DNA from: Candidatus Dormiibacterota bacterium
GTDB lineage: Bacteria > Chloroflexota > Dormibacteria > DASZGP01
DNA: 36,576 bases
NCBI GenBank assembly: GCA_035938695.1
Contig: DASZGP010000051.1
Coordinates: 1-36,576, forward strand
Reading direction: 5' to 3'
Shown piece after piece: positions 3,101 to 16,429 of this stretch. Both the position numbers and the translations under genes were made by a program. Position 1 is the first letter of the stretch; each line of letters begins with the position of its first letter. The notes beneath the pieces are model-generated. The model did no database searches, had not been told where the DNA came from, and worked only from the letters and a program-made list of their open reading frames with translations.

Positions 3101-3436
3101 CGTCGGGCGGGTGCACATCCGCGAGAAGTAGCGGACCAGGGAGCGCTCGGCCCGGGTGCCGTTCTCGCTCTCCGGGTCGGCCTCCCAGGCGGCCAGGGCG
3201 GAGTCCAGGTCGGGGGAGGCGACGAAGAGCGCCTCGCGGACCTCGGGGCGGGCGATCAGCTCGCGCAGCCGGGCCCGCAGCGTCTGGCGGTCGGCCTTCA
3301 GCGCCGCCGCCCGGTCGCCCTCCGGCGCGGCCGGGGCGGCCAGGCCCTCGCCCCAGTCGAGGAACTCGGAGATCGGCAGCAGCGGCGTCCGCAGGGCGAA
3401 GAAGCCGGCGGGGCGGAGCTTGGCCTCCAGGCTCAT
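119..3436 (-). CDS. lanB: Class I lanthipeptide dehydratase LanB (full length, with glutamylation and elimination domains)
   Basis: 1105-aa ORF. The N-terminus FFALRTPLLPISEFLDW is typical of Lant_dehydr_N (PF04738 type). The C-terminal region EWLYLKLYCG...WFFIRYADPDWHLRLRLHG is typical of the SpaB_C/Lant_dehydr_C elimination domain (PF14028 type). ATG at 3436, TGA at 119-121. Confidence 0.93.
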   Translation of the reverse strand: MSLEAKLRPAGFFALRTPLLPISEFLDWGEGLAAPAAPEGDRAAALKADRQTLRARLRELIARPEVREALFVASPDLDSALAAWEADPESENGTRAERSLVRYFSRMCTRPTPFGLFAGCSVGTTGDETTLELGPRSTYRRHVRLDMEYVAGLVSNLETDTQIRERLHWRPNSSIYRAAGRLRYVEARFRNKQRQHRLVAVEDSDYLNATLGRAAAGATRQELAQALVEPDISIEEALGFVDELIDSQLLVSDLEPEITGEEPVGILVRRLAAIPEAELVAKTMDAAEKWLERREEEPPGTPPAEYRALAESLGELPAPVELNRLFQLDLVKPVERATVGPEVLSEVERVIRMLYRLRGGGGGRDGLSAFRDAFRERYESTEVPLNLVLDEEVGIGFDRSNAPGAEASPLLQGINFPGSMDESVRWRALQSLTLRKLSEAYREGRDEIAITNADLDALPAPGNVPLPRSLSCVVEVARGEAGQGKTRMYYHGAFGPSGARLLGRFCHADPELERQVGEHLREEEAGSPEAIFAEVVHLPEGRIGNIVMRPVLRQYEIAYLGRSGAPAEMQIGVDDIMVAVAGDRVVLRSKRLNREIVPRLSSAHNYGLRSVGIYRFLCALQMQGVNSDLGWDWGPFQGAPFLPRVVSGNTVLSRARWNVPRDEIKKLDLPTPDARFGAAQEMRARLSMPRWVAVSDADNELWVDFDNALSVETFVQLLKKRPQVTLVEPFASRETLIAEGPEGTFTNELVIPLTAIPTPPAEAKGGKAGRGAPVPAEANGRAEHPAGEVVAAPAAEPAMTESAWENPAERRLLIQTDVRRTYAPGSEWLYLKLYCGTSTADALLRDVLAPLTRQAIATGAADSWFFIRYADPDWHLRLRLHGDPRRLLGEFLPNLEATLEPLLRDHTVSRLMLDTYQRELERYGPSSMDVCEQLFWADSEAVLSIVELLAGDAGMDARWKLGLRGSDQLLTALGLDAEAKRTLLRRLRDSYRREFGDDGGLRKQVADRYRGLTAEVQNLIDPGWDGGEIAPGIQILDARNAALAGPVARIHELREKGQLMIPLPDLGASLVHMHLNRLLRSAARAQELVIYDFLDRLYLSRAART

Positions 3437-3440
3437 GACT

Positions 3441-3522
3441 GACGAGCCATCCGCGAGCGGAAGCGGATCATGACCGACGCGCCCATCCGCGAGCGGAAGC
3501 GGATCATGGACGAGCCATCCGC
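3441..3522 (-). repeat. Intercistronic direct repeats with embedded hairpins between lanC and lanB
   Basis: The 26-nt unit ccatccgcgagcggaagcggatcatg occurs at 3447-3472 and 3483-3508 (identical copies, 36-nt period). A third partial copy, gacgagccatccgc, lies at 3509-3522 (compare 3441-3454). Each unit contains the inverted repeat ATCCGC-N8-GCGGAT. On the mRNA strand there are three GCGGAUGG and two AUCCGC elements, which allows alternative pairings. Confidence 0.8.
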
Positions 3523-3535
3523 AGGCCTAGGATGC

Positions 3536-4831
3536 TCATGCCCGCTGCGCCGCCCGCGGCGAGGGCGCCATCAGGAGCAGGTGGTCCCAGCGCGGCTGGT
3601 GGGGCTCGGTCGCGGCCAGGATCACCAGCAGCAGGCCGCAGACGCCGGTCAGCAGCCCGGGGTCGTCCTCGAAGTCGCGCGAGGGGCCCCAGGCCTGGTA
3701 GCCGGCGATGCCGGTGCCGGGCTTGCGCATCTTCAGCATCTGCTCCAGCCAGCGGCCGGCGGCCTCGCGCAGCTCCGCGCGGCCGGTGGCCTGGTAGAGC
3801 CGGTTGTACATGTGGGCCAGGCCGGCGGCGCCGTGGCAGATGCCGGCGTCGATCACCCCGCACTCGTCCATGGGGCGCTGGGAGGCGGCCACCGCCATCT
3901 CCAGGGCCTGGGCGGCGAGGTCGTCGTAGCCGGCGGCGTCGGCGCCGACCCAGAGCCCGATGGCGGCCCCGGGGTCGCCGTAGCACCAGGCGCTGCGGGA
4001 GGCCGCGTACTCGGCCTCGGCGCCGGTGAAGGCCGGCAGGGTGGCGCCGGGCTTGGGGTCGGCGAGGCGGGAGGACAGCATCCAGGCGGCCGCGCCCTCG
4101 AAGAGGCGGCGGGCGCGCTCGACCTCGATGCCCTCGGCGATGGCCTGGCCGAGGAAGCCCAGGGGCCCCGGGATGCCGTGGGCCAGGCCCAGGTTGTAGT
4201 AGCCGCTGGGGTAGCGCTCGGCGGTCTCCTGGAGCATCATCGTGGCCGGCGTGTGCCAGCTGATGCCGACCGCCATCGGCTCGCTCATCTCGTCCATCCG
4301 GCGCACGATCTCGGCGACCAGGTCGCGGGCCACGGGGTTGGGGAGGCGGGAGAGGGCGTAGACCCCGAAGCCGGTCAGCCCGCTGACGATGTCGTAGTCG
4401 CGGCGCCAGGTGTCGCCCTTGAGGTGGGTCAGGAGCAGCTCGTCGATCTCCTGGGTGGCGGACTCCTCGGGCACCTCCAGCAGGCGGCCCTCCATCAGGG
4501 AGAGGGTGGCGGCCACGCCGACGAAGCCGGAGAACAGCGACGGCGGCATGATCTCCGAGCTGATCAGCTCGGCCGCCTTGTCGACCTGGGCCAGGGCGAT
4601 CTCGCCGGCGCCCTCGCGGCCGGCCGTGTGCAGCTCGGCGAAGAGCAGGGCCTGGCCGGCGTGGCCTCCGGCGAAACCGGCGGCGCCGCCGGGGAACTTC
4701 TCCTCGACCACCTTGCCGGCCGCGATCAGCTCGCGCAGGGCGGCTTCGAGGTCGGCGCCGGTGGCGCGGGCGGATTCCAGCAGGCTGCCTTCGGCGATCG
4801 GCTTCCAGTCGGTGACGATGGTCTCGGTCAT
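3536..4831 (-). CDS. lanC: Lanthipeptide cyclase LanC
   Basis: 431-aa ORF with the LanC signature residues: GLAHGIPG, SAWCYGDPG (Zn-ligand Cys) and GICHGAAGLAHMY (Cys-His Zn ligands). This is LANC_like (PF05147 type). ATG at 4831, TGA at 3536-3538. Confidence 0.93.
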   Translation of the reverse strand: MTETIVTDWKPIAEGSLLESARATGADLEAALRELIAAGKVVEEKFPGGAAGFAGGHAGQALLFAELHTAGREGAGEIALAQVDKAAELISSEIMPPSLFSGFVGVAATLSLMEGRLLEVPEESATQEIDELLLTHLKGDTWRRDYDIVSGLTGFGVYALSRLPNPVARDLVAEIVRRMDEMSEPMAVGISWHTPATMMLQETAERYPSGYYNLGLAHGIPGPLGFLGQAIAEGIEVERARRLFEGAAAWMLSSRLADPKPGATLPAFTGAEAEYAASRSAWCYGDPGAAIGLWVGADAAGYDDLAAQALEMAVAASQRPMDECGVIDAGICHGAAGLAHMYNRLYQATGRAELREAAGRWLEQMLKMRKPGTGIAGYQAWGPSRDFEDDPGLLTGVCGLLLVILAATEPHQPRWDHLLLMAPSPRAAQRA

Positions 4832-4880: not shown

Positions 4881-4917
4881 AAAAAAGGACGGAGCCCGCG
4901 GGCCGCGGACTCCGCCC
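4881..4917 (-). terminator. Intrinsic terminator/attenuator between lanA (A1) and lanC
   Basis: The minus-strand RNA reads GGGCGGAGUCCGCG-GCC-CGCGGGCUCCGUCC followed by UUUUUU. This gives a 14-bp stem whose two non-Watson-Crick positions are G-U wobbles only in the minus-strand transcript; they would be C-A mismatches on the plus strand. It lies 24 nt after the A1 stop. Confidence 0.7.
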
Positions 4918-4940: not shown

Positions 4941-5198
4941 TCAGCAGGTGCAGGTCTTGTAGCAGGAGGCGTTGGTGATGCCTCCGGGGCACTCGCAGAT
5001 CGAGAGCTGAAGCCACGAGGTGTTGGGCTGGCAGGCGCTCGTGGGGCAGCTCAGGTTGCTGTTGAAGGGCGGCCCGTAGCAGAACTGCTCGCCCTGGGTG
5101 ATCGGCGGAATCCCGCCGGCGGCGCGCAGACCGGCGTCGGTCAGCTCGCGGATGGTCTCCCGGCTCAGCGCCAGGCGGCGCGAATCGAGTCCAGACAT
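4941..5198 (-). CDS. lanA: Lanthipeptide precursor A1: 29-aa leader and 56-aa core with 8 Cys and 12 Ser/Thr
   Basis: Sequence: MSGLDSRRLALSRETIRELTDAGLRAAGG | IPPITQGEQFCYGPPFNSNLSCPTSACQPNTSWLQLSICECPGGITNASCYKTCTC. The SD GGGAGGG lies about 9 nt upstream of the ATG at 5198; an alternative ATG at 5204 would add MG. The gene sits immediately upstream of lanC-lanB on the same strand. Confidence 0.85.
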   Translation of the reverse strand: MSGLDSRRLALSRETIRELTDAGLRAAGGIPPITQGEQFCYGPPFNSNLSCPTSACQPNTSWLQLSICECPGGITNASCYKTCTC

Positions 5199-8260: not shown

Positions 8261-9955
8261 TCAGCCCGAGGCGGCCTGCGAAGGCGCCGCGCCCGCGTCG
8301 AGGTCGCCGCGGGGCAGGTCCCGCTTGAGCACCTTGCCGGTGGTGGTGCGGGGCAGGGCGTCGAGGAAGACCACGTCGCGCGGCACCTTGTAGCGGGCCA
8401 GGTTGGCGCGCACCACCTCCTTGACCTCCTCGGCGGTGGCGTGGCCGCCGTCGCGCAGGACCACGAAGGCCCGCAGGCGCTGGCCGAACTCGACGTCGTC
8501 GACCCCCACCACCGCGACCTCGGCGATCGCCGGGTGGGCGGCGAGGAGGTCCTCGACCTCGCGGGGGTAGACGTTCTCGCCGCCGGAGACGATCATCTCG
8601 TCGTCGCGCCCGGAGACGAAGAGCAGCCCGTGGCGGTCGAAGTGGCCGACGTCGCCGGTGCTCATCAGGCCGTCGATGACGGCCTTGGAGCCGCCGCCGG
8701 TGTAGCCCTCGAAGAGGAACTCGTTGCCGACGAAGATCCGTCCCTCCTGGCCCGGCGCCACCGCGCCGCCGCCGGCGTCGAAGAGGCGGACCACGGTGCC
8801 CTTGGGCGGGCGGCCCGCGGTGCCCGGGGCGAGGCGCAGCTCGGCGGGCGTGGCGATCGTCGCCTGGGCCACCTCGGTGGATCCGTAGAGGTTGTAGACG
8901 ACCTCCCCAAAGGCGTCCATGAACCGCTCCGCGAGGTCGCCGTGGAGCGCCGAGCCGCTGATGCCGGCGATCTTCAGCGAGCTGGTGTCGTACTTCCGCC
9001 GGGTCGCCTCGGGGAGGTCCATGATGCGCTGGGCCATCACCGGCACCAGGACCAGGACGTCGGCGCGGTGCTCGGCGATCGCCGCCAGGGTCTGCTCGGG
9101 GTCGAAGCGGCGCTGGAGGATGACGGTGTCGGCCAGCAGCAGCGCCAGCTCGTAGTTGGCGAAGCCCCAGGAGTGGAACAGCGGCGCCGCGACCAGGGTG
9201 CGCTGGCCGGCGCGGAGCGGGATCCGGGAGAGGAACCCGCAGGCGGCGCCGAGGCCCTTGGGCTGGGAGCGGCGGGCGCCCTTGGGGGTGCCGGTGGTGC
9301 CCGAGGTGAGGATCGTCACCTTGCCCTGGCTCTGGGGCGGCGTGACCTCGGCCGTGTCCCCGGCGGCGATCAGCGCCTCCAGCGCCGGCGCGTCCTCGCC
9401 GCCCCGGCCCCAGGCGGTGAAGCGCAGGCGGCCCCTGGTCGCGGCGGCCAGGAGCGCCTCGAACTCCTCGTCGTGGATGATCGCCTTGGCCCCCTCGCGC
9501 TCCATGACCTCGGCCAGCTGCGGCCCGGCGAAGCCCGTGTTGAGGTAGAGCGAGTCGGCGCCGAGCTTGGACAGCGCCACCGTCGCCTCCACGAAGTAGC
9601 GGTGGTTGCGGCACATCACGCCGACCCCGTCACCAGCCCCGATGCCCGCCCTGGCCAGCTCGCGCGCCAGGGCGTTGGTGCGGCGGTGGACCTCGGCGAA
9701 GGTCAGGGTGCCGAGCTCGTCGACGATCGCCGCCCGGTCGGGGTGGACGCCCGCCGTCAGGGCGTAGCCCGCGGCGGTGCTGAATCCCCAGCGCAGGATG
9801 GTCCTGACCCGGTGCAGGGTGTGCTTCGGCGCCTCGATCGCCACCGCGCCGGCGCGGGCCAGCACCACGACGTCGTGGACCTGCTTGTCGACGAACGCCA
9901 CGGCGCGCAGCGGCAGCCGCAGCGCGGCGCGCCCCACCGCTGGCATCTCAGGCAT
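8261..9955 (-). CDS. AMP-dependent synthetase/ligase (acyl-CoA synthetase family)
   Basis: Contains the AMP-binding motif TSGTTGTPKGA, plus later YGSTE and the C-terminal GKVLKRDL. The start is uncertain: TTG 9982, ATG 9955 or ATG 9946. Confidence 0.85.
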   Translation of the reverse strand: MPEMPAVGRAALRLPLRAVAFVDKQVHDVVVLARAGAVAIEAPKHTLHRVRTILRWGFSTAAGYALTAGVHPDRAAIVDELGTLTFAEVHRRTNALARELARAGIGAGDGVGVMCRNHRYFVEATVALSKLGADSLYLNTGFAGPQLAEVMEREGAKAIIHDEEFEALLAAATRGRLRFTAWGRGGEDAPALEALIAAGDTAEVTPPQSQGKVTILTSGTTGTPKGARRSQPKGLGAACGFLSRIPLRAGQRTLVAAPLFHSWGFANYELALLLADTVILQRRFDPEQTLAAIAEHRADVLVLVPVMAQRIMDLPEATRRKYDTSSLKIAGISGSALHGDLAERFMDAFGEVVYNLYGSTEVAQATIATPAELRLAPGTAGRPPKGTVVRLFDAGGGAVAPGQEGRIFVGNEFLFEGYTGGGSKAVIDGLMSTGDVGHFDRHGLLFVSGRDDEMIVSGGENVYPREVEDLLAAHPAIAEVAVVGVDDVEFGQRLRAFVVLRDGGHATAEEVKEVVRANLARYKVPRDVVFLDALPRTTTGKVLKRDLPRGDLDAGAAPSQAASG

Positions 9956-9997
9956 GGGCGAGATTATGGCCCGATGGGGCAACTCGCCGTCCGCCGC

Positions 9998-10858
9998 TCA
10001 GCCGGCGGCGCGGCGGGCGAGGGCCTCGGTGAGGCGGGCGATGGCGCTGGCCAGGCCCCAGTCGGCGCCCAGCGCGGCCAGGCGCCGGGGGTCGGCGGGC
10101 GCGTCGGGGACGGCGCAGTCGGGCAGGTCGAGGGGGATGTCGGCGACCGGGGCGACGACCCGGCGGGCGCCGGCCAGGTACTCCAGGGCGGGGCCGTCGA
10201 GCCGGGTGTTGGCGATGATGCCCTCCAGGTCGCCGTGGCGGCGGACCAGGTCGACGGCGGTCTTGGCGCCCACCCCCCGCAGGCCGGGGAGGCCGTCGGA
10301 GGGGTCACCGCGGAGGATCGCGAAGTCCAGGTAGCTCCGCCCCGGGATGCCGTAGCGCCGGGTGATCTCGGCCTCGTCGACCACCGCCAGGCCGCCCCGC
10401 TCGGGGTAGAGGACGGTGACGTCGGGGTCGCGGACCAGGGCGAAGAGGTCGCGGTCGCCGGACCAGATCTCGACCCTCCCGGTGACCCGGGCGACGATCG
10501 AGGCGATCACGTCCTCGGCCTCGAAGCCGGCGGCGCCGATCACCGCCAGGCCGGCGGCGCGAAGGACGTCCCAGGCCACCGGCATCTGGGGCTCGAGCTC
10601 GGGCGGGACGGGCTCGGCGACGCGGTGGGCCTTGTAGGTCGGCAGGGCCTCGACCCGGAAGGCCGGGCGCCAGTCCTCGTCGGTGGCCAGGGCCAGGTGG
10701 GCGGGGCGGCGCTCGGTGATCAGGCGGGCCAGGTTGTCGATGCAGCCGCGGGCGCCGTTGATCGGCGCGCCATTGGGCGCCACCACCGTCCTGGGGACCC
10801 CGTAGAAGGCGCGGAAGATCAGGCTGGAGCCGTCGATCAGGAGCCAGTCGGTGGGCAC
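9998..10858 (-). CDS. 5'-3' exonuclease (FEN / Pol I N-terminal-domain family)
   Basis: The N-terminus LLIDGSSLIFRAFYG and the H3TH-type region SDGLPGLRGVGAKTAVDLV are present. GTG start at 10858. Confidence 0.85.
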   Translation of the reverse strand: MPTDWLLIDGSSLIFRAFYGVPRTVVAPNGAPINGARGCIDNLARLITERRPAHLALATDEDWRPAFRVEALPTYKAHRVAEPVPPELEPQMPVAWDVLRAAGLAVIGAAGFEAEDVIASIVARVTGRVEIWSGDRDLFALVRDPDVTVLYPERGGLAVVDEAEITRRYGIPGRSYLDFAILRGDPSDGLPGLRGVGAKTAVDLVRRHGDLEGIIANTRLDGPALEYLAGARRVVAPVADIPLDLPDCAVPDAPADPRRLAALGADWGLASAIARLTEALARRAAG

Positions 10859-12915: not shown

Positions 12916-13572
12916 TCAGTCCACCAGGCGGCCGCGGACCGCGGCCAGCGCGGCCTGGGTGCGGTCGGCCACGTCCAGCTTCTGGAGGATGTTGCTGACG
13001 TGGGTCTTGACGGTCTTCTCGGAGATGAACAGGCGCCGCCCGATCTCCTTGTTGGCGAAGCCCTCGGCGATCAGGCGGAGGACGTCGCGCTCGCGCGCCG
13101 TCAGGGCCGAGCCGGGCGGGGCGCTGGCCCGGTGCATCAGGCGGCTGGCGACGTCGGGGTGGAGCGCGGGCCGGCCCCGGTGGACCTCGCGGATGGCCTC
13201 CGCCAGGGCCTCCGGCTCGACGTCCTTGAGCATGTAGCCGGCCGCCCCGGCGTCGATCGCGGCGAAGACCTGGGCGTCGTCGACGTAGCTGCTCAGGACC
13301 AGCACCCGGGTGGCGGGGGCGATCTCGCGCAGCCTTCGGATGGCGCCGACCCCGTCGCCGGCCGGCATGACCAGGTCCATCAGGACCACATCGGGATGCT
13401 CGCGGGTCACCACCTCGACCGCCGCCGGGCCGCCGTCGGCCTCGCCGGCGATGGCGATGTCGGGCTGGAGCCGGAGGAAGGCGCGCAGGCCCTGGCGGAC
13501 GACCGCGTGGTCGTCGACCAGCACCACCCGGATGGCGCCGGCGACGCCGGGCGTGGTCGGGCGGTCAGCCAT
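12916..13572 (-). CDS. NarL/LuxR-family response regulator
   Basis: The receiver domain IRVVLVDDHAVVRQGL...VVLMDLVMP and the C-terminal HTH LTARERDVLRLIAEGFANKEIGRRLFISEKTVKTHVSNIL are present. The ATG at 13572 overlaps the kinase stop (ATGGCTGA). Confidence 0.9.
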   Translation of the reverse strand: MADRPTTPGVAGAIRVVLVDDHAVVRQGLRAFLRLQPDIAIAGEADGGPAAVEVVTREHPDVVLMDLVMPAGDGVGAIRRLREIAPATRVLVLSSYVDDAQVFAAIDAGAAGYMLKDVEPEALAEAIREVHRGRPALHPDVASRLMHRASAPPGSALTARERDVLRLIAEGFANKEIGRRLFISEKTVKTHVSNILQKLDVADRTQAALAAVRGRLVD

Positions 13573-14765
13573 CGCCGTCGGCGCCCGCCCCGCCGGACGC
13601 CCTGGCGGCCGCCGCCGGGCGCGGCCCACCCGCTCGCCGCGCCGGCAGGAAGACCCTGACCTCGGTACCCCGCCCCGGCGCGGTGTCCAGGGTGAAGGCC
13701 GCGTTGACCGCCGCCGCCCGCTCGCTCATGGTGCTCAGGCCCATGGTCCGCACCGTGCGGGGCAGGGTGTCGAGGTCGAAGCCCGGGCCCTCGTCGCGGA
13801 CCGACAGCTCGGTGCCGCCGCGCCAGGCCCGCAGGTAGCCCCGCACCGGCGCGCCGCGGCCGTGGCGGACGGCGTTGTGCATCGCCTCCTGGCCGATCCG
13901 CAGCAGGGCCAGCTCCTCCTCCAGCGACAGCTCGGGGTGACCCTCGGCGCGGAACTCGAGGTCGGCCTCGCGGCCCCGGCGCAGCGACTCCGCGTGGTCC
14001 GCCAGGGTCGCGGCCAGGCCGTCGCGCTCCAGCGACTTGGGCCGCAGCGCGTAGACCATGCCGCGCAGCTCGGCCAGGGTCGCCGCCGCCTGGTCGTGGA
14101 GGCGTTCCAGGGCGGCCGCCGCGTCGCCGGTCCCGGCGCGCGCCTCGAGCGCCGCCGCGCGGGCCTCGTAAACCATGCTGAAGAGGGTCTGGGAGGCGGC
14201 GTCGTGGAGCTCCCGGGCGACCCGGTGGCGCTCCTCCATGATGGCCAGGTCCTGGCTCTCGGCATACAGCCGCGCGGTGGCGATCGCCACCCCGGCGTGG
14301 GAGGCCAGCATCTCCACCAGCTCCTGGTCGCGGGCCGAGAAGCTGCCCTCGGGCGTACCCGAGAGGTACAGCTCGCCGAGCGTCTGGCCGCGGTGCCGGA
14401 TCGGCACACCCAGGAACTCCGCCATCTCGGGGTGGTGCTCGGGGTACCAGGAGAAGCTCGCGTGGTCGCGGATGTCGGCGACCCGGATCGAGCGCCCCTC
14501 CCGGAGCAGGATGCCGAGCACCCCGTGGAAGCGCGGCAGGGTCGCCGATCTTGCGCGCCTTGGCGTCGGTGATGCCGACGGTCAGGAAGCGGTCGAAGCC
14601 GCCCCGGCCGTCGGGGATGCCGAGCGCGCCGTAGCGGGCCCGCACCAGCCCCGCCGCGGTGCGCAGGATGGTCAGCAGGATGCGCTCGATATCGAGGTCG
14701 CCGGCGATCGCCAGCGCGGCTCGGTTGAGCGCCTCCAACTGCTCGGTGCGGTCGCCGTCGGGCAT
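13565..14765 (-). pseudogene. Cytoplasmic GAF-domain sensor histidine kinase (HisKA_3 + HATPase), interrupted by an apparent 1-nt frameshift near 14539-14541
   Basis: The N-terminal GAF half (MPDGDRTEQLEALNRAALAIAGDLDIERIL...TDAKARKIGD) is in one frame. The continuation LPRFHGVLGILLREGRSIRVADIRDH...VARELHDAASQTLF...HATPase is in another. The span is 1201 nt, which is 3n+1. The frame change falls at a CCC run (GAC-C-CTG). Confidence 0.75.
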
Positions 14766-14789
14766 GGCGACCAGTGTAGGGGCGCTAGG

Positions 14790-14978
14790 TCAGCACGCGA
14801 CGCAGCCGCTGGTGGGGCACTGGCTGGCCAGGGACAGGGACTGGCAGGAGGGGTCGCTGCAGGCGCAGGACTGGACGCAGGAGGTGGTCACACCGCCCAC
14901 CACCAGGGGCGCGTCGGCGTCGGTCAGGCGCCTGATCGTCTCGGACCGCAAGCTCAGCCGCCGGAGGTTCTCTCGCAT
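14790..14978 (-). CDS. lanA: Lanthipeptide precursor A2: 29-aa leader and 33-aa core with 7 Cys and 11 Ser/Thr
   Basis: Sequence: MRENLRRLSLRSETIRRLTDADAPLVVGG | VTTSCVQSCACSDPSCQSLSLASQCPTSGCVAC. ATG at 14978 preceded by AGGGTGAAA. The stop is 24 nt upstream of the kinase ATG. Confidence 0.8.
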   Translation of the reverse strand: MRENLRRLSLRSETIRRLTDADAPLVVGGVTTSCVQSCACSDPSCQSLSLASQCPTSGCVAC

Positions 14979-15163
14979 TTTCACCCTGAGAATGGGCGTG
15001 GCCGCGCCGCATCGCGGCACAGCTCACGCTGGTCTGATCCACCCGAGACACCACATCGGTCCCTGGCCGCCACCGTTGCGCCCCGAAGCGGTCAGGGAAT
15101 GCTCTGATATCCAGGGTGGACCGCGTCCGCTTACCTGTCAACGGGCCCGTATGGGCCAATGAC

Positions 15164-16429
15164 TCAGGCGGCCACGGGCTCCGGTTGGGTACGGATCGCG
15201 AGGATCCTGGGGGAGAGGATCCAGAGGCCCGCCGCGCTGCTGGCGCAGGCCCCGGCGATCAGCGTGGGGACGGGCCCCCACCAGGTCCCCATCAGCCCGC
15301 CCACGATCGAGCCCAGCGGCATCGTGCCCCAGACGATGGTGCGCATGGTGGCGTTCATCCGGCCCTGGACCCGGTGGGGCGTGATCGCCTGCCGCAGGCT
15401 GACCTGGTTGATGTTGTAGACCGGCACCATGAAGCCGCCGACGAAGGTCGTCCCGACCATAAGCGGGAAGGCCGCCCCGAGCGTCGCCAGCGGCGTCAGG
15501 AAGAGGGCCAGGCCGCCGACCGTGCTGGTCAGCACCAGGCTCGGCCCGACCCCGGTCCGGGCGGTGATCCAGGTCGTCGAGAGCGCGCCCAGCAGGGACC
15601 CCACGCTGCCCAGGGCGAAGATCAGGCCCACGGTGCCGGGGCTGAGGTGGAGCACCTTGTAGGCGAAGATCAGCTCCACCGCGAAGAACATCGACGTGCC
15701 CAGGTTGCTGGTGGCGGTGCAGCCGGCGATCCGCCGCAGGACCGGGTTGCGGAGCACCACCCCGACGCCCTCGCGGAGCTCGGCGAGGAAGCCGGTCTCG
15801 ATCCCCAGGCCAGGCTCGGGCGCCTCCTTGGCCGGCTCGGGACGCCGGATCAGGGCCAGCGACGCCGAGGAGACCAGGAAGGAGACCGCGTCGGCGGTGA
15901 CCGCCAGCGCCGCGCCCACGGCCTGGAGCAGGAAGCCCGCGAAGGCCGGCCCGGCGACCTGGGCCGAGGAGTTGGTGACCTCCAGCTTGGAGTTGCCCTC
16001 GACCAGCTCGGAACGCTCCACCAGGGCCGGCAGGCAGGACTGGTAGGAGACGTCGAAGAAGACCGTCAGGACCCCGGTGGCGAAGGCCACCACGTAGAGC
16101 TGGGCCAGGCCCAGGACGCCGAGCCCGGCGGCCGCCGGGATGGTCCCCAGCAGCAGCGCCCGGCCCACGTCGCAGGCGATCATCAGCGGGCGGCGGCGGA
16201 CCCGGTCCGAGTACACCCCGGCGACCAGCCCCAGGAGCGGGAAGGGCAGGAACTCCAGCGTCGCCAGGATGCCCACCTGGAGGGCGTTGGCGTGGAGCCC
16301 GATGATCGCCAGCGTCGGCAGCGCGAGCTGGCTGACCTGGCTGCCGAAGCGGCTGATGGTCTGCCCCGCCCATAGCTTGAGGAAGTCCGGGTTGCCCCAG
16401 AGCGCGCCGCCGAAGAGCCGTTGCCGCAT
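15164..16429 (-). CDS. MFS transporter (EntS/MFS_3-like)
   Basis: 421 aa with about 12 hydrophobic helices. The N-terminus reads FLKLWAGQTISRFGSQVSQLALP...GVYSDRVRRRPLMI. Confidence 0.88.
   Translation of the reverse strand: MRQRLFGGALWGNPDFLKLWAGQTISRFGSQVSQLALPTLAIIGLHANALQVGILATLEFLPFPLLGLVAGVYSDRVRRRPLMIACDVGRALLLGTIPAAAGLGVLGLAQLYVVAFATGVLTVFFDVSYQSCLPALVERSELVEGNSKLEVTNSSAQVAGPAFAGFLLQAVGAALAVTADAVSFLVSSASLALIRRPEPAKEAPEPGLGIETGFLAELREGVGVVLRNPVLRRIAGCTATSNLGTSMFFAVELIFAYKVLHLSPGTVGLIFALGSVGSLLGALSTTWITARTGVGPSLVLTSTVGGLALFLTPLATLGAAFPLMVGTTFVGGFMVPVYNINQVSLRQAITPHRVQGRMNATMRTIVWGTMPLGSIVGGLMGTWWGPVPTLIAGACASSAAGLWILSPRILAIRTQPEPVAA

Follow-up and report, generated by a model that had tools for sequence, protein, structure and literature searches.

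What kind of leader carries an L-x-L-x-R-E-T-x-R-x-L box and a double-glycine end at a locus that encodes a LanB and a LanC enzyme, which of its residues are read by which protein, and how many peptides in the same genome bear it? This question is raised by lanA1, which lies in a window of 36,576 nucleotides, the whole stretch of DNA analysed here, corresponding to the entire contig C51 of a MAG (2.30 Mb in 325 contigs, 76.7% complete, 0.42% contaminated) with a GC content of 72%. We consider it probable (about 0.8) that A1 is a class I lanthipeptide precursor with a leader of the LxLxKx5L...Gly-Gly type and that a single LanB/LanC/LanT set serves a library of such precursors.

The genes lanA1, lanC and lanB form one minus-strand unit (Table 1), in which lanA1 sits 110 nt upstream of lanC and is preceded by the SD-like sequence GGGAGGG. 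A hairpin resembling an intrinsic terminator separates lanA1 from lanC, and two sites of this kind were observed versus 0.3 expected. LanB covers almost the whole of both dehydratase models, aligning with the glutamylation domain PF04738 over model positions 1-648 of 649 (E=1.5e-160) and with the elimination domain PF14028 over positions 1-255 of 255 (E=5.2e-68); its relatives in the PDB are MadB, MibB and NisB, the closest solved structures, with NisC and MadC as the relatives on the LanC side. LanC retains the motifs aligned to GLAHG, WCYG and CHG of NisC, which we take to provide the zinc ligands (the Cys of WCYG and the Cys-His of CHG) and the catalytic His (LAHG), as in NisC. Translation of the A1 ORF gave the leader MSGLDSRRLALSRETIRELTDAGLRAAGG, ending in AAGG, followed by the core IPPITQGEQFCYGPPFNSNLSCPTSACQPNTSWLQLSICECPGGITNASCYKTCTC, in which 8 Cys are accompanied by 12 Ser+Thr, so that Ser+Thr residues are at least as many as Cys. 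Judged by these domains and motifs, the window holds a predicted class I lanthipeptide locus with A1 as its putative precursor.

Table 1 Features of the putative lan system in the window
Feature	Size	Position	Strand	Basis or remark
lanT, 5' end	39 codons	1..117	-	GTG 1 nt after the lanB stop; cut by the contig end
lanB, full-length class I dehydratase	1105 aa	119..3436	-	PF04738 + PF14028
lanC, lanthionine cyclase	431 aa	3536..4831	-	PF05147, E=1.3e-36
intrinsic-terminator-like hairpin between lanA1 and lanC		4887..4917	-	14-bp stem, 11 G-C pairs, T6 tail
lanA1, predicted class I lanthipeptide precursor	85 aa	4941..5198	-	ORF + translation, leader HMM E=6e-13
lanA1 stop codon		4941-4943	-	
lanA1 core	56 aa	4944-5111	-	
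lanA1 leader	29 aa	5112-5198	-	
lanA1 leader box L-A-L-S-R-E-T-I-R-E-L		5142..5174	-	pattern search
lanA2 precursor	62 aa	14790..14978	-	pattern + HMM; MFS_3 gene upstream, same strand
lanA3 precursor	77 aa	19938..20171	-	pattern + HMM; leader end ...AIAAGA
lanA4 precursor	60 aa	20182..20364	-	pattern + HMM
lanA5 precursor	72 aa	26587..26805	-	pattern + HMM
lanA6 precursor	64 aa	26813..27007	-	pattern + HMM; NF038153 18.1 bits

Across the window, the six leaders measure 24-30 aa, have a basic N-terminus and terminate in GG, except for AAGA in A3. The sequence-only reading had described a common anatomy of length, basic N-terminus, box, 8-12 variable residues and terminal GG, which we could confirm, except that the residue sets it gave for the box exclude A5 and A6, whose boxes begin L-R-I-A-R and L-N-L-A-R, respectively. 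The neighbours of A2-A6 are housekeeping genes, namely folE, queA, dxs and the gene for the small chain of ribonucleotide reductase, together with an M3 oligopeptidase gene adjoining A5/A6 and two MFS_3 genes, which adjoin A2 and stand near A3/A4. In the stretch 12916-16429 (-), an MFS_3 transporter, A2, a GAF histidine kinase and a LuxR-type response regulator are encoded in one orientation. The MFS transporters may be part of the lan system, for immunity or export.

To place the leaders among catalogued families, the models NF038153 (lant_leader_L1a, 'class I lanthipeptide', cut-off 22 bits) and TIGR04149 (cut-off 25 bits) were used. In the window, NF038153 reached A6 with 18.1 bits, below the cut-off, and gave no match to A1-A5 at E<=1; over the MAG it matched 32 places at E<=10, two to three of them above 22 bits, and each alignment extends to the last model position, which falls on the GG. 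A homologue search with one precursor as query returned only that precursor itself. The leader profile searched against 1.84 billion cluster representatives (50%-identity clusters) at E<=0.001 matched 2,994 proteins. The best 149 of these are all 46-168 aa long, with the leader N-terminal in nearly all; 141 of them show the Arg form L-x-L-x-R-E-T-[VIL]-R, and this genome contributes 32. Ten matches from outside the genome were scanned, of which eight pass NF038153 with 22.7-40 bits; several of the ten also touch NF038158 and TIGR04149, the best TIGR04149 score being 25.8 bits.

This outcome agrees well with the class I LanAs of Bacteroidetes, which carry an LxLxKx5L motif in the place of FxLD, have a terminal Gly-Gly in many cases and are often accompanied by a C39 protease gene within the cluster (Walker et al. 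2020, PMC7268733). The window leaders share with these LanAs (NF038153; NF038158 for L1b) the spacing L-x-L-x-[K/R]-x5-L and the GG end, and the two systems also have in common a full-length LanB with a LanC and, in the clusters of relatives, a C39 ABC transporter. They differ in that Arg takes the place of Lys throughout the window leaders, that the N-terminus is Arg/Ser/Thr-rich rather than Lys-rich, and that the host is an uncultured lineage of 72% GC, not a member of the Bacteroidota. It is the exchange of Lys for Arg and the Arg/Ser/Thr-rich N-terminus that leave five of the window leaders undetected by NF038153 and A6 below the cut-off. The resemblance to Bacteroidota class I and GG-type leaders, which the sequence-only reading had put forward, is thus borne out by the NF038153 matches, the eight of ten sister sequences over the cut-off and the published pattern, and on the same three lines the window leaders form the Arg-rich, high-GC margin of a family already catalogued, divergent from NF038153 and not formal members of it by score. 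The leader type itself, LxLxKx5L...Gly-Gly with Arg for Lys, is accordingly one already known. Two of the database proteins, P0003 (132 aa) and P0032 (168 aa), contain two complete leader-core units per chain with NHNE[TK]L before each unit; they could represent precursors with several cores from the Lys-type leader family.

The enzyme pair LanB + LanC is that of nisin-type class I systems, but the leaders are unlike theirs. None of the 65 leaders found genome-wide (see below) contains an F-N/D-L-D/N box, the search with F[ND]L[DNE] giving 0/65 and upholding the proposal of a GG-type leader instead of the FNLD type, and the predicted cut is at GG rather than at a LanP site. A different likeness is to TIGR04149 (GG_sam_targ_CFB), the rSAM-modified peptides of Bacteroidota with a similar K-L-x-L-x-K-E-T-I-x-x-L...GG leader; unlike those systems, the maturase here is LanBC, and TIGR04149 matched none of the six window peptides.

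Which residues of the leader serve which protein was then considered with the GG as anchor. In the 51 leaders that end in GG, hydrophobic residues occupy position -4 in 94%, -7 in 82%, -12 in 76% (of which Leu 74%) and -15 in 80%, and an acidic residue stands at -8 in 47%. The C39 recognition consensus comprises Leu-12, three variable residues, Glu-8 and Leu-7 before the double Gly, and LahT has pockets for Val-4, Leu-7 as well as Leu-12 (PMC6363468). By these frequencies, the library fits the double-glycine (AMS/PCAT) pattern. The Glu of RET is found at -17 in 39/51 GG leaders and at -16 in 9/51, including A1 and A4, in which the box is one residue nearer to the GG and the L-12/L-7 register is consequently shifted by one. 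In the -17 register A3 would end in A-G, not G-A, and its cut site is therefore ambiguous.

Superposed on the protease motif, the last Leu of the box corresponds to Leu-12 and its Val/Ile to -15, while L-22, L-20, R-18, E-17, T-16 and R-14 are left unexplained. It is possible, if unlikely in our estimate, that the box is a generic double-glycine scaffold read mainly by the C39 exporter, with LanB and LanC recognising the peptide otherwise or having relaxed leader needs. The coincidence of V-15 and L-12 with C39 peptidase positions is what such a scaffold would predict, and sister leaders match TIGR04149, a family whose GG peptides are modified by rSAM enzymes and are no substrates of LanB, in one case with 25.8 against a cut-off of 25 bits; related leaders in rSAM-type systems thus keep this alternative a live rival. 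However, the invariant E-17, T-16 and R-14 do not belong to the C39 recognition motif as published, one LanB clade accompanies the leader family in different phyla, and there is precedent in FNLD/FDLD systems, where a leader box N-terminal of the cleavage region binds LanB and its mutation abolishes binding, as described for MadB, which holds the FDLD box through its RRE (PMC12241602). By analogy with the FDLD box, L-22, L-20, R-18, E-17, T-16 and R-14 are the best candidates for docking on LanB/LanC.

The leader is by no means confined to the window. An HMM of the six leaders detected 65 six-frame ORFs in the MAG at E<=0.01 and 0 in reversed ORFs, a separate profile search of the genome counted 67 leaders, and a leader regular expression gave 57 occurrences in the MAG versus 0 in the reversed set. 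The leader recurs in this MAG far above chance. The exact box expression of the earlier reading fits 10/65 leaders, and the looser L-x-L-x-[RK]-E-T-x-R-x-L fits 55/65. The 65 precursors are spread over 41 loci on 34 contigs, as 28 singletons and arrays of up to seven; the 59 outside the window lie on contigs from C10 to C324 (for example C286:3560-4930, C164:3125-3912 and C46:677-1380), and C286 holds seven tandem precursors, the last one truncated by the contig end. A concentration of precursor loci at contig ends, as expected of hypervariable islands, was considered and rejected, given 39/65 within 2.5 kb versus 38.7 expected.

At least 51 of the 65 leaders end in GG, the remainder in GA, AG or AA. 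Among 41 aligned leaders, no change is seen at the L, the E, the T or the Arg that follows the hydrophobic residue, and at least 90% keep the Arg before E-T and the final Leu; when all 65 precursors are compared, three positions never vary, namely the first Leu, the Glu and the Arg behind the hydrophobic residue. The codons of the box vary synonymously (CTG/CTC for Leu, CGC/CGG/CGT/AGG/CGA for Arg and ACC/ACG/ACT for Thr), and this variation beneath a conserved protein box marks the genes as old copies maintained by purifying selection and not as recent duplicates. The cores, in contrast to the leaders, are hypervariable: they are 26-66 aa long and consist of 10.7% Cys and 20.9% Ser+Thr, and only 14/2016 pairs are similar. 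The MAG has one lanB and one lanC, a count to be read with the 77% completeness, which leaves room for more enzymes. DUF4135, the domain of class II LanM, gave no match in the MAG in a search that is weak, as it was silent in 14 control genomes too.

Quite improbable, in view of these features, is the explanation that the scattered copies are mostly not LanB/LanC substrates and instead represent unmodified exported GG peptides or decaying paralogs, with A1 alone becoming a lanthipeptide. It accords with the fact that the enzyme genes adjoin A1 alone among the precursors, that 28/41 loci are single genes amid housekeeping genes, and that a few cores hold only 1-2 Cys. Against this, the leaders are under purifying selection with the N-terminal box included, the cores show an approximately tenfold enrichment in Cys and nearly all of them have more Ser+Thr than Cys, the reading frames of the scattered copies are intact with SD-like sequences preceding most, and no other lanthipeptide synthetase (DUF4135, searched as above) was found in the MAG. 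We therefore retain the reading of one enzyme set serving many substrates, which we infer from the shared leader and the single lanB and lanC.

The exporter was sought next to lanB. In all three relatives with the leader beside lanB and 3-6 precursors each (G008 of the same family, G029 and G287 of the same class), the gene directly 3' of lanB encodes Peptidase_C39, ABC_membrane and ABC_tran domains; lanC is present at the locus in G029 and G287, and none is found on the G008 contig, where an MFS gene directly precedes lanB. In the window, the gene following lanB is cut after its 5' end, and its N-terminus IFRKEALESRQAGSGPGEPLRLVSR aligns with LFRPEALEAQAHSVGPGEPLRAVSR of G008, which precedes the C39 domain there, as well as with the N-terminal extension of the G029 protein. 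A JGI contig with an identical LanB breaks at the same place, 12 nt beyond the window, with a lanT piece of 43 residues, and when metagenome contigs were scanned for exact matches to the 5' end of lanT, no bridging contig was retrieved. Elsewhere in the MAG, contig C150 carries an ORF at 8598-10274 (-), open at the contig end (10276), which encodes a 566-aa piece with the transmembrane and ATPase parts, sharing 55% identity with residues 269-834 of G029 LanT, in which residue 269 is just past the C39 domain. The stretch absent between the two lanT pieces is about 150 residues, exactly the C39 segment. PF03412 found no C39 domain in the MAG, and since this segment of lanT falls in the assembly gap, the result was not counted as evidence of absence.

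On these alignments, the gene after lanB in the window is the ortholog of the C39-peptidase ABC transporters of the relatives, and we infer that C51 and C150 are linked and that the C39 domain is present in this MAG. The expectation that a C39 ABC transporter would be encoded in the flanking genome is thereby supported by synteny, that is, by the order lanB-then-lanT in 3/3 relatives and by orthologous lanT pieces. The LanT proteins of the MAG, G008 and G029 share a conserved extension of about 35 aa (LFRxEAL...PGEPLR) before the C39 domain, an extension similar to the way in which accessory proteins of the HlyD/CvaA type begin. A large secreted repeat protein of the same genome (G000:C82:3739-7059 (+)) has a C-terminal part of about 190 aa that resembles a stand-alone C39_2-type domain (SLDCEAAALQMALAY...) and matches weakly (E=3e-4) the C39 HMM built here. 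That the leaders are cut by a non-C39 protease, be it a LanP-like subtilisin, the M3 oligopeptidase or a stand-alone C39-like protein, and exported via MFS_3 is very unlikely, for in spite of the PF03412 result, eight S8 peptidase matches in the MAG, the M3 and MFS_3 genes beside or near A2-A6, the C82 protein and the MFS gene directly upstream of lanB in G008, the lan locus contains none of the eight S8 genes, the C39-ABC exporters of 3/3 relatives have their ortholog here in the gene after lanB, from which precisely the C39 segment is absent, and the leaders fit the double-glycine recognition pattern.

The preferred reading, a class I precursor whose leader is read by both modifying enzymes and exporter, can be cast as the following proposed sequence. 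The N-terminal half of the leader (L-22, L-20, R-18, E-17, T-16 and R-14) would dock the peptide on LanB and/or LanC; LanB would dehydrate Ser/Thr of the core via glutamyl-tRNA, and LanC would close thioether rings by the addition of Cys. The C-terminal half (V-15, L-12, D/E-8, L-7, A-4, G-2 and G-1) is likely to form a helix that the LanT C39 domain recognises; this domain would cut after GG, with LanT exporting the product. One enzyme set would in this way serve a large substrate library, prochlorosin-like in operation but class I in chemistry.

How ordinary is such a leader in a high-GC host? A single-LanB query of genome contigs gave no relatives, and an alignment of four LanBs gave matches. 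LanB relatives at 42-52% identity were found in Thermoanaerobaculia, Holophagaceae, Pyrinomonadaceae, Myxococcota, Actinomycetota, Gemmatimonadota, Planctomycetota, Verrucomicrobiota and one Paenibacillus. Among 80 such loci, the leader family occurs no more than 8 kb away in 34, of which 20 have a flanking C39 ORF in addition; the leader-bearing ones include high-GC Acidobacteriota, Actinomycetota, Myxococcota, Gemmatimonadota and Verrucomicrobiota. The suggestion of an unusual host context did not survive this comparison: with 2,994 clusters matching the leader and leader-bearing LanB loci in several high-GC phyla, a high-GC host is ordinary for the leader family. Within the class and phylum of this MAG the lan system is rare, the leader occurring in 5/374 species genomes of the class, the other four with 1-5 copies, and in 3/401 genomes of a phylum-wide sample.

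Copy numbers in other genomes were counted with the six-leader model, which is tuned to this MAG, and are accordingly lower bounds. G728, the 2.9-Mb genome of locus L100, has at least 16 copies with 2 lanB (about 5.5 per Mb), G731, the 7.1-Mb genome of L081, at least 13, and three Thermoanaerobaculia genomes of 7.4-8.8 Mb (G733-G735) at least 9-21 over the chromosome (1-3 per Mb). Scattered multi-copy precursors are thus a general trait of the leader family in soil phyla, and this MAG, with about 28 leader genes per Mb and one enzyme set, has the highest density among the genomes examined. Extrapolated to the complete genome, the library would amount to about 85 precursors. The leader itself is ordinary; its genome-wide copy number is the notable part.

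Two groups of experimentally known systems invite comparison. According to PMC9680876, Ped15.1/15.2 of Pedobacter lusitanus, the thalassomonasins and the viridisins VdsA1-A3 are experimentally modified class I peptides with conserved double-glycine leaders, resembling the present case in having several GG-leader precursors per LanBC. Their precursors number two to three and lie inside the cluster, whereas here at least 65 are found at 41 loci. The second group comprises the class II prochlorosins made by ProcM and the substrates of SyncM, with up to about 80 precursors per genome and up to 79 substrates for SyncM (PMC9872173, PMC10783134). Shared between this group and the present system are one synthetase set, tens of scattered precursors, a conserved GG leader, hypervariable cores and a small genome. 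The prochlorosins, however, depend on a bifunctional class II LanM, have Nif11-type leaders and come from marine picocyanobacteria, in contrast to the separate tRNA-dependent LanB + LanC and the unrelated leader described here. The system of this MAG therefore seems to resemble the prochlorosins in its working without belonging to them, as judged from the DUF4135 search, with its weakness noted above, and the NF038153-type leader. In the literature searched, no class I precursor expansion of comparable size was found.

Our wider proposal, more tentative than the assignment of A1, is that this high-GC bacterium of about 3 Mb runs a class I counterpart of the prochlorosins, with one LanB/LanC/LanT set acting on at least 65 precursors with unrelated cores; we give it somewhat less than even chances. 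Should it hold, extreme substrate tolerance would have arisen naturally in a tRNA-dependent LanB and a stand-alone LanC, which on such a scale has so far been documented only in class II (ProcM, SyncM), and a single LanB/LanC pair processing at least 65 cores would constitute substrate-tolerant class I machinery useful for peptide engineering, as well as a handle on why bacteria maintain peptide libraries. The leader adds an Arg-rich, high-GC end to the catalogued class I double-glycine family. Annotation pipelines are likely to overlook most such genes, given that the NCBIfam model mostly misses Arg-rich leaders, and cluster-centred genome mining undercounts them because the precursors are scattered.

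Some core sequences recur beyond this genome. The C-terminal motif of A1, C-E-C-P-G-G-I-T-N-A-S-C-Y-K-T-C-T-C (window 4944-5000 (-)), has a counterpart in P0054 from another JGI metagenome (L115:487-696), C-R-C-P-T-G-I-T-D-A-S-C-Y-R-T-C-T-C. The core motif C-T-G-Y-Y-P-S-[ILWY]-N-x-P-C is found at L021:13938-14432, L034:7190-7384, L033:15874-16173 and C13:2442-2660 of this MAG, and likewise in the proteins P0020, P0056, P0081 and P0094, spanning different genomes and metagenomes. A further C-terminal motif, C-Q-[IL]-T-Y-Q-P-R-C-F, is shared by two precursors on C164 of this MAG (3319-3522 and 3533-3748) and one of G008 (L034:7388-7705), with the variant C-[QE]-L-T-Y-Q-P-R-C-F at the C-terminus of P0006 and P0110. 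These recurrences across genomes suggest that some core families are conserved across lineages, though most cores are unrelated.
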